Assembly (NCBI GenBank): GCA_035549295.1 | Contig: DASZRG010000011.1 | Span: forward strand, 1-17,078 | Origin: Patescibacteria group bacterium | GTDB lineage: Bacteria > Patescibacteriota > Microgenomatia > Levybacterales > GWA1-39-11 | Length of the DNA stretch: 17,078 nt | Direction of reading: 5' to 3' | Notes under the pieces: generated by a model | Databases searched by the model: none | What the model was told of the DNA's origin: nothing | What the model saw: only the letters and a program-made list of their open reading frames with translations | Made by a program: the position numbers and the translations under genes | In this document: positions 4,876-8,748 of the stretch, piece by piece | Numbering within the stretch: the stretch's first letter is position 1 | Layout of the letters: every line of letters begins with the position of its first letter

Positions 4876-5466
4876 TTATTTCGTCAAATTGAGACGTTTC
4901 TCAGAGCCTTCAAGAAGCCTTTTTATGTTTGGTCTATGTGTCCACCAGATGAATAGTGCGCCGGCGATAGTGTATAAAGCATAAAAAGTATTATGTATTA
5001 AGCAAAAGACAAGGATCGGAATGGCGAGGCTTAATAGTAGATTGGTGAGACTCATAAGTTTTGTTAGGATTAAGATTGCAAACCAAATAACAAAAATTAT
5101 TACTATATATTTTATTCCCAAAATAACAAAAAGTGTTCCGCCATATGTCGCGACACCGCGACCTCCCCTGAATTTTAAAAAAAGAGGAAAAACATGCCCG
5201 ACTATTGCAGCAAGTGCAACAAGCCCAATAGAAATCTGATCAAATCCCAGAAGCGATGCAAGAAGAGTTGGAACGAGACCCTTTAAAAAATCAAAGAGCG
5301 CGACAGGGACTGCAAACTTCAGGCCAAATGTACGAAGGATGTTAGTCGCTCCAATATTGCCACTTCCAACTTTTCTTATGTCAACATTATTTTTTTTTGC
5401 GACGATAAAACCAGTCGGGATAGAGCCAAAAACATATGATAAGAATATCAAAAAAAGAGGCAACAT
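4876..5466 (-). CDS. plsY: Glycerol-3-phosphate acyltransferase PlsY (acyl-phosphate dependent)
   Basis: 196 aa polytopic membrane protein with canonical motifs GSIPTGFIVAK, GSGNIGATN and GHVFPLFLKFRGGRGVAT. Confidence 0.9.
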   Translation of the reverse strand: MLPLFLIFLSYVFGSIPTGFIVAKKNNVDIRKVGSGNIGATNILRTFGLKFAVPVALFDFLKGLVPTLLASLLGFDQISIGLVALAAIVGHVFPLFLKFRGGRGVATYGGTLFVILGIKYIVIIFVIWFAILILTKLMSLTNLLLSLAIPILVFCLIHNTFYALYTIAGALFIWWTHRPNIKRLLEGSEKRLNLTK

Positions 5467-5499: not shown

Positions 5500-6387
5500 A
5501 TGTTTGTTTTCAAAATCACAGACATTGCCGACATGCTCGCTGAAGGCGCCGATGAAGTTATTTCGAATCGAGATAATATTAACAGCATAAATGTTTTCCC
5601 GGTTCCAGACGCTGATACCGGAAGCAACATGGCAAGTACTTTGTTGCCAATCAAGAACGCTAAAGTAGATAGTCAAAGACCTCAAATATTTATCGAACAG
5701 ACTCTCCAGCAGGTACTGAAGGCTTCAAGAGGAAATTCTGGCATAATGATAACTTCATATCTTTCGGGTTTGCTAAATTCACTTACTGATGAGCAGATTG
5801 GTTCTGAATTGTTAATCAAGTCGTTTAAAAATGGAGCTGATTCAGCAAAGTCTGCAGTCGAAGCACCCAAAAAGGGCACGATGCTCGATGTGATGTACGC
5901 TTTTTATAAAAGCTTTGATGCGAATTTAGATATTTCACAGAATGCGTTTGATAAAGCACTGACTAGAACAAAAGAGGCACTTATTGCAACCGAAAGCCAA
6001 ATGAAAGTTTTATCAGATCACAAAGTAGTTGATGCAGGTGCTCTTGGTTTCACTCTATTTATCTACGGATTTTCAAAAAAAATCACACGCGAAAGGCTTG
6101 ATATATCGTTTCTTAACTTAAAAAAAGTTAATGAGGAGAAATTAGAATTTGGAAAATTCCCATATGAAGTCGTTTTTATAGTTGAGGAGCCTATGTTTTC
6201 TGCGCCCGATCTAAAAAGTATGTTCCATGCAATGGGTAATTCGATAGACATCGTGGAAGTTGCTGGTAGTATAAAAGTCCACATACATACAGATAATACG
6301 GATGTGGTGCGCGAAACAGCAGAGCTTGTTGGGAATATTGTTGATCTTAAAATTACTGATATGAGAAATACGGTCGTTCACGCGTGA
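5500..6387 (+). CDS. fakA: DAK2-domain fatty-acid-kinase subunit FakA-like (YloV family), short form with N and central domains only
   Basis: 295 aa. The N-terminus aligns with S. aureus FakA/B. subtilis YloV (DIADMLAEGADEV...NVFPVPDADTGSNM, RGNSGIM, VVDAGALGF). The C-terminal part matches the central domain (IKVHIHTDN...DLKITDMRN). It ends in tandem TGA TGA, and the roughly 220-aa C-terminal domain of canonical FakA is absent. Confidence 0.8.
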   Translation: MFVFKITDIADMLAEGADEVISNRDNINSINVFPVPDADTGSNMASTLLPIKNAKVDSQRPQIFIEQTLQQVLKASRGNSGIMITSYLSGLLNSLTDEQIGSELLIKSFKNGADSAKSAVEAPKKGTMLDVMYAFYKSFDANLDISQNAFDKALTRTKEALIATESQMKVLSDHKVVDAGALGFTLFIYGFSKKITRERLDISFLNLKKVNEEKLEFGKFPYEVVFIVEEPMFSAPDLKSMFHAMGNSIDIVEVAGSIKVHIHTDNTDVVRETAELVGNIVDLKITDMRNTVVHA

Positions 6388-7244
6388 TGAAGAATATTGG
6401 AATATTAGTGGGGGAAGACTGCGATCTTCCTGAAAAAATTATTAAAGATTCAGGAATCAATATTTTTCCATTTGTTCTTGAATGGGAAGAGCTAAAAAAA
6501 CAATCAGAAATTTACAAAACCATGCGTGGTCCACACAAGACAAGTCCCAAAACGTCTCAGCCATCACCAGCAACATTCAAAGAACTATTTGAAAAGTGTT
6601 TGGAAAAATATCAGGACTTAATTGTTCTAACAGTTTCATCAAAATTTTCCGGCACTTACAACTCCTCTGTTCAAGCAAGAAAAATGCTTGATAAAAAACT
6701 TCAAGATAGGGTTCATATTGTTGATTCTGAAGTTTCAAGCGGTGCTGAGGCGCTGTTGGTTTTTGAAGCGATAAGTATGATTGACACAGATGAGAAGGTT
6801 GAAAAAATTGTTGAAAAGCTTCGACGGTTAAGTCTGAGAGTAAACCTCTTGGGTGCATTTGAGGATCCGCAGTGGCTTGTTGCTGGCGGACGTCTAAATC
6901 CTATAAAAGCGCTTCTTGTTAAAAACCTTTTAAAAGGAGGATTTAGACCAATTCTTACAATAAAGGATGGTCAAATTGTAGTTAAAAAAATACAAGGTAA
7001 CGCACATGATAGCGCCGAAGCTTTGTTTAATCAGTTCAAGAATGATTTTGATAACCGTAGTCCTGACTCTGAAGTAAATGTTGTAATAACGCATGCGGAC
7101 TTTGAGGATCAGGCAAATTTGCTGTCAAAAAAACTTGCAAATTTTAGTCATTCAGTTAAAATTAAATTCATACATGAAATATCGCCGGTTATAGGTTCTC
7201 ACTTGGGACCAGGGGCACTTCTTCTTTCATGGATTGTTAAATAA
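6387..7244 (+). CDS. fakB: DegV-family fatty-acid-binding protein (FakB)
   Basis: About 285 aa. Motifs: MKNIGILVGEDCDLP, KTSQPSP, SSKFSGTY, VVITHAD, ISPVIGSHLGPGAL, all DegV hallmarks. I chose ATG 6387 (TGATG overlap with the fakA stop). The ORF track's 6384 start is an in-frame GTG one codon upstream and remains possible. Confidence 0.9.
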   Translation: MKNIGILVGEDCDLPEKIIKDSGINIFPFVLEWEELKKQSEIYKTMRGPHKTSPKTSQPSPATFKELFEKCLEKYQDLIVLTVSSKFSGTYNSSVQARKMLDKKLQDRVHIVDSEVSSGAEALLVFEAISMIDTDEKVEKIVEKLRRLSLRVNLLGAFEDPQWLVAGGRLNPIKALLVKNLLKGGFRPILTIKDGQIVVKKIQGNAHDSAEALFNQFKNDFDNRSPDSEVNVVITHADFEDQANLLSKKLANFSHSVKIKFIHEISPVIGSHLGPGALLLSWIVK

Positions 7245-7873
7245 TGGTGTTTTTTGAATCTCTAGCGTTTTTATTAATAGGATACCTCTTGGGTTCCTTT
7301 CCTACAGCATATATAGTTGTAAAACAAGCAACAGGAAAAGATATTAGACTTGAGGAGACGGGTAATGTAGGCGCTATGAATACTGCTCGTACAACGGGTA
7401 AGCCTCACCTTTTCCTTCTCGTATTTTTAATAGATTTCCTAAAAGGATATCTCGGTATTTTTCTTCCACAATATTTTTTAGGTAGTGATGCGACACTCGC
7501 GATCGCGGCAGGGGCATTTGGAGTTGTTCTGGGTCACTGTTATTCAATATATTTTAAACTGAAGGATGGAAAATTTGCTGGAGGCAAGGCAATTGCATCT
7601 CTTGCAGGTATATTAGCTGGCCTCAATTTTATGCACCTTCTTCTTCCTTGGGGTATCGCAATGTGTATTCCAGTAATTCTCGCCGGCAACCTGCTTCTTG
7701 GTCAATTTGCTGGGACTGTCGCACTTCCATTTATTGGTTTGTTTCTAGCTCCAGAATATTTTCTTTTGACTATTCTCTGTGCCATACCCATTTTTATAAA
7801 GCAATGGCCGAGAGTTATTCCTGCATTATCTGGGAAAGAGCCAAAATGGTATTTTAAAGGCAAGAAAAAATGA
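7244..7873 (+). CDS. Divergent PlsY-family acyltransferase paralog
   Basis: 209 aa polytopic membrane protein collinear with PlsY: GSFPTAYIVVK (motif 1), ETGNVGAMNTAR in place of GSGNxGATN (motif 2), and GHCYSIYFKLKDGKFAGGKAIAS (motif 3 with an insertion). The start overlaps the fakB stop (TAATG). Confidence 0.75.
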   Translation: MVFFESLAFLLIGYLLGSFPTAYIVVKQATGKDIRLEETGNVGAMNTARTTGKPHLFLLVFLIDFLKGYLGIFLPQYFLGSDATLAIAAGAFGVVLGHCYSIYFKLKDGKFAGGKAIASLAGILAGLNFMHLLLPWGIAMCIPVILAGNLLLGQFAGTVALPFIGLFLAPEYFLLTILCAIPIFIKQWPRVIPALSGKEPKWYFKGKKK

Positions 7874-8748
7874 AAAAAATCTACGAATACATCTTTATAG
7901 TTCTTCTAATTCTTCTTGCTATTTTTTCCTACACTTCATATCGTGCTCACGCAGCACTTGCACTACATGTAAGTCCTGGGACAGATACTCCAGCCAAATA
8001 CGGTCTTAAATATCAGGATAGATATTTTATGACGTCGGACAACGTAAAAATCGCTTCTTGGTACATACCTGTTAAAGATTCAAAAGCTGTAGTTATTTTA
8101 GTTCACGGATTTCAATCATCTCAAGGTGGAAAAGCCCTCATGCTATCTCATGCTCAATATCTCAATAAGGCTGGATATTCAACGCTTCTTATAGATCTGC
8201 GCTCAATGGGTTATACTGCTGGCAATAAAGTGACGCTAGGTATAAATGAATGGAAAGATGCTGAGGCAGCGTATGACTATGCCAAATCTCTCCCCGAGAA
8301 CAAGGGCAAGAAGATTGGTTTTATGGGTAATTCCATGGGGGCCGCGACTTCACTTATCGAGCGCGGAATAACTGGAAAGGGCGATTTTGTAATAGCATCA
8401 GTTCCCTATGCTAATTTTACAAGTCTTCTCAAATTTCAGATCGAACGCGAGGGGTTACCGCCGCTAGTGTTCTACCCGTTTTTGAGGCTTTCAACAGCAA
8501 TTGAGCTGGGTCTTCACTATGCTTATTATTCGCCTGCAAATTGGGTTGGCAAGATTGATGTACCAGTTTTTCTTATTTCGGCAGCACATGACAATGAAGT
8601 AAATAGTCTTGATGCAAAATCGTTGTACAACGAAGTCCATGCACCCAAAGAGTATTGGCAAGCAAACGCTGGTCATGATATATATAAAGATCAACCACAG
8701 CAATTCAAAACAAAAGTTCTTGCCTTCCTCTCAAAGATAAAGAGCTAG
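7870..8748 (+). CDS. Membrane-anchored alpha/beta-fold serine hydrolase (putative esterase/lipase, COG1073-like)
   Basis: 292 aa. N-terminal MKK + hydrophobic anchor IFIVLLILLAIFSYTSY, oxyanion-region VILVHGF, nucleophile elbow GNSMG, acid AAHDNEV, His in NAGHD. The start overlaps the plsY2 stop (ATGA). Confidence 0.8.
   Translation: MKKIYEYIFIVLLILLAIFSYTSYRAHAALALHVSPGTDTPAKYGLKYQDRYFMTSDNVKIASWYIPVKDSKAVVILVHGFQSSQGGKALMLSHAQYLNKAGYSTLLIDLRSMGYTAGNKVTLGINEWKDAEAAYDYAKSLPENKGKKIGFMGNSMGAATSLIERGITGKGDFVIASVPYANFTSLLKFQIEREGLPPLVFYPFLRLSTAIELGLHYAYYSPANWVGKIDVPVFLISAAHDNEVNSLDAKSLYNEVHAPKEYWQANAGHDIYKDQPQQFKTKVLAFLSKIKS

Follow-up and report, generated by a model that had tools for sequence, protein, structure and literature searches.

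Can a fatty acid kinase (Fak) do without the domain on which its kinase subunit, FakA, docks the fatty-acid-binding protein FakB? This question is raised by a 17,078-nucleotide stretch of DNA (hereafter the window) from a Patescibacteria group bacterium (GTDB lineage Bacteria; Patescibacteriota; Microgenomatia; Levybacterales; GWA1-39-11; assembly GCA_035549295.1, contig DASZRG010000011.1, forward strand), which encodes a 295-residue FakA with a kinase and a middle domain but no FakA_C (short fakA, 5500..6387, + strand, identified by Pfam, NCBIfam, an AlphaFold2 (AF2) model and Foldseek), followed by a gene for a full-length FakB of the DegV family. In Staphylococcus aureus, FakA_C is the FakB-binding domain, and an engineered FakA_NL (residues 1-327), consisting of the N (kinase) and L (middle) domains, is active, showing that the C-domain is unneeded for the chemistry (PMC9136124) and agreeing with the domain dissection described in the original prediction for this locus. 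Three groups disagree on the roles of FakA_C, the middle domain and the dimer in catalysis (PMC9136124, PMC10848957, PMC11617999), and our literature search found no published account of a C-less FakA or of Fak in the candidate phyla radiation (CPR)/Patescibacteria.

We consider it likely that the locus encodes a working minimal Fak, which is supplied with its sole FakB via translational coupling and feeds two flanking PlsY acyltransferases. The short protein appears to be a known enzyme in a minimal form that occurs naturally, and not the product of a broken gene. The window is an entire contig of its source genome (1.38 Mb, 51 contigs, 97% complete), and we rejected mis-binning as its origin because its guanine-plus-cytosine content (38%) and tetranucleotide use (correlation r = 0.989) agree with the genome much as those of the other contigs do.

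A FakA of two domains

Pfam divides the 295-residue protein into a Dak2/DhaL-type ATP-binding domain (residues 34-192, 5599..6075, + strand; Dak2, E = 2.9e-22, also found in a profile search of the genome) and a FakA-like_M middle domain (residues 219-292, 6154..6375, + strand; PF21645, E = 6.4e-13), and finds no other domain; FakA-like_C (PF13684) gave no match in the protein. The middle-domain profile is covered nearly end to end (positions 1-77 of 80), and the reading frame closes with a TGA at 6385-6387 and a second TGA directly after, as stated in the original prediction of a FakA with N and L domains only and a clean end. The curated whole-protein models matched over only part of their length, with TIGR03599 (YloV) aligning at model positions 2-296 of 530 (187.9 bits versus a cut-off of 396.1) and NF038248 (FakA_VfrB) at positions 8-309 of 549 (100.1 bits versus a cut-off of 975), so that the protein scores below both FakA/YloV cut-offs.

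AF2 modelled the short FakA with a predicted local distance difference test (pLDDT) score of 94.4 and a predicted template-modelling (pTM) score of 0.93. In the model, the middle domain forms a complete beta-alpha-beta-beta-alpha-beta unit with a ferredoxin/ATX1-like fold and pLDDT above 90 (strands at residues 222-229, 246-254, 257-264 and 279-287, helices at 235-243 and 267-277), followed by a 7-residue helix at 288-294, and the chain ends six residues past a DMR motif. The best Foldseek match of the model was Streptococcus suis FakA (7w7h, 2e-15), followed by the S. aureus and Thermus thermophilus FakA_N structures and then by DhaL, with template-modelling (TM) scores of 0.85-0.87 against S. 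aureus FakA_N (root-mean-square deviation 2.4 Å) and 0.73-0.75 against Escherichia coli DhaL.

The gene downstream of fakA (degV/fakB, 6387 or 6384 to 7244, + strand) encodes a full-length fatty-acid-binding protein. It matches Pfam DegV at positions 2-278 of 280 (E = 2e-51) and TIGR00762 above its cut-off (185.5 bits), carries the FakB motifs TSQPS, SSKFSGTY and IGSHLGPG, and has fatty-acid-binding DegV/FakB proteins as its best relatives in the PDB. The scores of the fakA and degV matches lie far above what chance would give. The suggestion that fakA is followed by a complete DegV gene and not by a split-off C-domain therefore holds.

The pair shares with the Firmicutes FakA/FakB systems (S. 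aureus 7RM7 and 6W6B; S. suis FakA-FakB2 7W7H) a Dak2 domain with six ATP/Mg ligands, the middle-domain fold with its HxH pair and a DegV/FakB carrier that is a protein of its own; in both, PlsY presumably consumes the product. It differs from them in lacking FakA_C (about 220 residues), in an alpha14 helix of about 7 residues, in a Glu at the position of the 'invariant' Cys240, and in having only one FakB, the start of which lies across the kinase stop. The short protein thus departs from the FakA family in three features: it has no C-domain, most of helix alpha14 is missing, and it stays below the whole-protein cut-offs. Its closest engineered counterpart, S. aureus FakA_NL, has the same N plus L content but retains the full alpha14, the dimer and Cys240 (PMC9136124), whereas the lineage of the window protein evolved without a C-domain.

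ATP/Mg ligands and the metal site

The six ATP/Mg ligands of S. aureus FakA (N32, D38, D40, T41, N82 and D185; PMC9136124) are all kept in the window protein, where they align with N31, D37, D39, T40, N79 and D178, and they are invariant or nearly so in two alignments. Also kept, as had been noted originally, is the HxH pair, H261 (6280-6282, + strand) and H263 (6286-6288, + strand), equivalent to S. aureus H282 and H284 and conserved without exception in the 187 sequences aligned. The equivalent of S. aureus Cys240, which had been given as either Glu or Val, is by alignment Glu223 (6166-6168, + strand), and a census of alignment columns marks E223, H261 and H263 as putative metal ligands in FakA-like_M.

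Across the 187 sequences, column 223 contains nothing besides Cys, Glu and rare Asp in any architecture. Short proteins have Glu in 56 cases, Cys in 19 and Asp in one (one more short row is gapped), fused proteins have Glu in 21 and Cys in 56 with no Asp, and canonical proteins have Glu in 6, Cys in 25 and Asp in 2. The residue two positions on (225) covaries with this column, as C-x-E versus E-x-[V/I], in short, fused and canonical FakAs alike, and Glu223 is invariant across the all-short clade described below. The Cys/His/His trio coordinates Zn in S. aureus and S. suis FakA (PMC11617999; PMC10848957), and the S. aureus E242A substitution leaves catalysis unaffected (PMC9136124). Published claims of an invariant Cys rest on Firmicute samples. 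A counterpart of the fourth Zn ligand (S. suis H226) was sought without informative result, as none of the architecture classes has a conserved His before position 223.

Both Glu and Asp are well-established ligands of Zn, and because column 223 holds only Cys, Glu and Asp, the change from Cys240 to Glu223 looks like a recurrent metal-ligand swap found in all architectures, and not like a loss. The original prediction had taken a Glu at this site as a possible sign of altered catalysis; its recurrence in every architecture argues for the ligand swap instead.

The nearest relatives are fusions with DegV

A word-indexed search returned dozens of proteins composed of Dak2 and the middle domain (Dak2-M), about 280-320 residues long, several of them on contigs of 16-79 kb and, where named, from Patescibacteria. 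Among 1.84 billion representatives, the closest relatives of the window protein were proteins of about 300 residues, followed by proteins of 566-600 residues, with canonical FakAs of 520-560 residues coming after these. Sorting 257 matches with our own hidden Markov models (HMMs) showed that 92 lack a third domain, 124 carry DegV and 41 carry FakA_C, and ten spot checks of the sorting agreed with Pfam.

In a FastTree phylogeny built on 187 rows and 287 columns of the N+M region, the window protein fell within an all-short clade of 46 cluster representatives (support 97; mean column identity 45%), so the short form is a family trait and not peculiar to one genome. The sister of this clade (support 95) comprised 20 Dak2-M-DegV fusions and nine short sequences, at least two of which are contig-end fragments (331 and 291 residues, from contigs roughly 1.1 kb long). 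A mixture-model IQ-TREE run on 76 rows, used as a consistency check, recovered the short clade (96), the sister fusions (96) and both jointly on one side of a branch (100). A tree of DegV sequences, which is independent since it uses different residues, placed the partner DegVs of the window and of three further loci (L007, L009 and the same-order genome G034) in one clade (support 99), and joined this clade to the DegV domains of precisely those 20 sister fusions (support 97). The kinase and DegV trees are congruent, and therefore the kinase module and the fatty-acid binder diverged together.

A single fission or fusion event thus appears to separate the split from the fused form. Because its nearest relatives are Dak2-M-DegV fusions, the history of the short FakA would be one of fission or fusion with FakB and not of C-domain loss from a canonical FakA. 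Of the 'naturally truncated' minimal kinase originally proposed, the minimal N plus L form was borne out and the truncation of a canonical FakA was not. The fusions share with the window pair the nearest kinase and DegV modules, the module order, the absence of FakA_C and, in a subset, a Glu-type metal site; they differ in being one polypeptide, where the modules of the window are separate and split by a stop/start overlap in the linker. We would class the short FakA as a C-less variant of FakA that represents the Dak2-M-DegV chain in split form.

An AF2 model of one natural fusion (L012, from a Parcubacteria metagenome-assembled genome (MAG), 593 residues; pLDDT 93.6, pTM 0.81) has only short helices between the middle domain and DegV. 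The fusion is collinear with S. suis FakA across some 620 columns, and FakB structures loaded with fatty acid match its DegV portion at TM 0.80-0.87, which places a true FakB where FakA_C stands in sequence order. Among the matches listed, Dak2-M-DegV fusions were spread over many phyla, with examples from Parcubacteria, the cultured Vagococcus salmoninarum, Bacteroidales, Gemmatimonadales and Thermotogae. A passage of one preprint (10.1101/2021.02.16.431466) credits Dak2-DegV fusions to Erni et al. 2006.

These relationships also permit a bolder and rather doubtful idea, which we offer tentatively: the split pair and its fused sisters may represent the original Fak design, in which a DhaL-like module, probably a monomer, works one-to-one with a genuine DegV at the place of FakA_C. 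FakA_C would then be a later, degenerate internal copy of FakB kept as an adaptor for several exchangeable FakBs, and the alpha14 dimer and the 'invariant' Cys would be lineage-specific additions that the chemistry does not require.

Other architectures and C-less FakAs were seen in the same searches. Two proteins (P0254 and P0256; 825 and 841 residues) have four domains, Dak2-M-FakA_C-DegV, that is, a full canonical FakA fused to FakB, and one (P0210) joins PlsY to Dak2-M. A generic search for FakA-pattern loci gave, among the matches listed, mostly canonical and fused FakAs and one more short FakA (L013, on a 1,970-nucleotide contig). Outside the Patescibacteria clade, one C-less FakA lies directly upstream of recG (L010:3501-4400) and another, in a Bacillota MAG, lies beside a divergently transcribed DegV gene (L011:3501-4409). 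These two appear to have arisen independently of the Patescibacteria short clade. The usual neighbour of FakA (yloV) in Firmicutes is recG.

A working kinase or a decayed one

We propose that the 295-residue protein, its Dak2 domain binding ATP/Mg and its middle domain a metal, would phosphorylate the fatty acid carried by the downstream DegV/FakB, which would take, in sequence order, the place of the FakB-like docking domain FakA_C. No docking domain would be needed because one cognate FakB is made in step with the kinase; coupled translation would let the two proteins meet directly at the active site, and the acyl-phosphate would then pass to the two flanking PlsY acyltransferases. We infer kinase activity, direct recruitment of FakB and the role of Glu223 as a metal ligand, and the short FakA is probably monomeric or weakly dimeric.

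Several observations weigh against this proposal. S. aureus FakA_NL has an 11-fold higher Michaelis constant (Km) for FakB1 than full-length FakA (0.99 versus 0.09 µM), and no FakB1 binding was detected for the isolated N or L domain (PMC9136124). One current model needs a FakA dimer for phosphorylation in trans (PMC11617999), and helix alpha14 (S. aureus residues 309-323), required for the tight dimer (PMC9136124), is cut in the short FakA to about 7 residues (288-294) with a pLDDT of about 59 in the AF2 model. S. aureus C240A is inactive and C240S badly impaired. The downstream pathway is incomplete in the source genome, where CdsA was not found and a PlsC-type protein gave only a marginal match (21.9 bits), and the cassette appears to be accessory, as no FakA, DegV or PlsY was found in 11 same-genus genomes or in the 24 same-family genomes searched overall. 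As to the history, the short and sister groups recovered by IQ-TREE had been defined on the first tree from the same data, and the trees are unrooted and fit fission as well as fusion.

Much of this would also suit a short protein that has decayed or been repurposed, for example as a regulator that binds ATP or metal and does not phosphorylate FakB-bound fatty acid: the means of docking and dimerisation and the conserved Cys are missing, alpha14 is shortened, and the cassette is rare in relatives. We think such decay unlikely. Within the short clade, despite its low mean identity, all ATP/Mg ligands and both His residues of the HxH pair are unchanged, as is Glu223, and Glu and Cys alternate at this position in canonical and fused FakAs as well. 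The tight operon with DegV and PlsY has been kept across families, the kinase has co-diverged with DegV, and the existence of covalent fusions argues for joint working of the two modules.

A working minimal Fak thus remains our preferred explanation, and a conserved natural FakA without C-domain and dimer helix, with Glu for Cys and with one dedicated FakB, offers a ready test case. Activity of the pair would mean that neither docking nor tight dimerisation is essential, and that Cys/His/His is better described as a metal site able to accept a carboxylate ligand.

No docking domain found elsewhere in the genome

Docking could alternatively be supplied in trans, by a FakA_C gene in an unassembled part of the genome or by an unrelated adaptor, and the source genome is indeed a draft with 3% estimated as missing. 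Two different profiles found no FakA_C in it. The best Pfam FakA-like_C match (E = 0.116) was a 42-residue frame with a stop, which is at chance level, and an HMM built from 41 canonical C-domains gave no match at E<=10 among 13,967 six-frame open reading frames. FakA_C was likewise not found in G034, a relative from another family of the same order that is 100% complete in 5 contigs and carries the same cassette in identical gene order. The short FakAs of other lineages, beside recG or DegV, again have no adjacent C-domain gene. We therefore regard docking in trans as very unlikely. Profile searches recovered one Dak2 and one DegV in the source genome, and a DegV HMM run on its six-frame open reading frames recovered only the gene adjacent to fakA, in keeping with a minimal Fak served by a single FakB.

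The fakA/degV junction

The two genes meet in a stop/start overlap, GTGATG (6384..6389, + strand), in which the fakA stop TGA (6385-6387) lies over a degV start, either ATG at 6387 or GTG at 6384; because the degV start overlaps the fakA stop, fakA has no space for a C-domain. Proteins of the short clade stop 3-10 residues past the conserved DMR motif, and fusions have 9-17 residues between this motif and DegV strand 1 (IGIVxD). The spacing in the window, made up of the fakA tail NTVVHA and the DegV head MKN, equals that of the fusion linker, so that the overlap sits at the linker position with fakA and degV in different frames.

This geometry could reflect an indel, introduced at TGATG by sequencing or assembly, that split a single Dak2-M-DegV gene, as the break falls exactly within the fusion linker, a one-base change would join the frames, and the sister clade is fused. 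We consider such an artefact very unlikely. Every one of the 46 clade representatives has the short form, residue M1 of the partner DegV falls in the alignment where beta-strand 1 of DegV begins, and the fakA stop overlaps a proper degV start codon, as ATGA or TGATG, in four of four independent loci from different assemblies (the window, L007, L009 and L004/G034). A programmed frameshift yielding a fusion was also considered and rejected, since the four junctions share no slippery motif. At one of them (L007:5895-5925), three tandem copies of AATCATG create as many in-phase ATGA stop/start overlaps.

That the protein is instead the ADP-binding DhaL subunit of a dihydroxyacetone kinase, as the shared Dak2 domain and weak matches to glycerone kinase models (1.2e-08) might suggest, is hardly tenable and was rejected, since DhaK/Dak1 (PF02733) gave no match in the genome at E<=1, the FakA-specific middle domain is present and complete, the modelled structure is nearer to FakA_N than to E. 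coli DhaL, and the gene stands in an operon with DegV and PlsY. The E. coli DhaL-DhaK complex (3PNL) nevertheless follows the same logic as the proposed minimal Fak, with a small helical-barrel subunit that binds the nucleotide and acts on a substrate carried by a separate EDD-fold subunit; it differs in pairing with DhaK and dihydroxyacetone and not with DegV and a fatty acid, while the window protein adds a middle domain and its genome lacks DhaK and DhaM.

The cassette and its distribution

Two further genes follow degV on the same strand: plsY2 (7244..7873, + strand), which encodes a divergent PlsY paralogue (Pfam G3P_acyltransf 4.3e-30; TIGR00023 102.6 bits, below the cut-off of 137.2), and a gene for an alpha/beta hydrolase that has a hydrophobic segment at its N-terminus and the serine motif GNSMG (7870..8748, + strand), whose start lies 4 nucleotides over the plsY2 stop. 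As degV/plsY2 and plsY2/hydrolase overlap in the same manner as fakA/degV, the genes from 5500 to 8748 look like one translationally coupled operon because each stop overlaps the next start. A promoter scan found sites no more numerous than in shuffled sequence. Divergent from this operon lies plsY (4876..5466, - strand), a canonical acyl-phosphate:glycerol-3-phosphate acyltransferase (Pfam G3P_acyltransf 1e-47, profile positions 1-164 of 164; TIGR00023 172.6 bits, above the cut-off of 137.2).

The arrangement of plsY divergent from fakA-degV-plsY2 is kept in G034 and L009, with both plsY and plsY2 at the same places. One possibility for plsY2 is the acylation of lysophosphatidate from acyl-phosphate, and the hydrolase could be a lipase or esterase releasing fatty acids for FakB. 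Neither PlsX nor acyl carrier protein (ACP) was found in the source genome, so that the cassette would be its only route to acyl-phosphate. Where ACP and PlsX are not found, the cassette thus appears to be the sole acyl-phosphate source, which bears on how small-genome bacteria build lipids from scavenged fatty acids.

In a survey of 300 evenly sampled genomes of the phylum, a FakA-like gene was found in four, in each case in a frame of about 600 residues. The rare and patchy occurrence of the cassette suggests an accessory, possibly transferred module, spread by transfer or thinned by repeated loss. One same-order genome without Dak2, PlsY or FakA_C contains a good DegV match (G037:C1:226885-227709; 3.1e-46), an orphan fatty-acid-binding protein.

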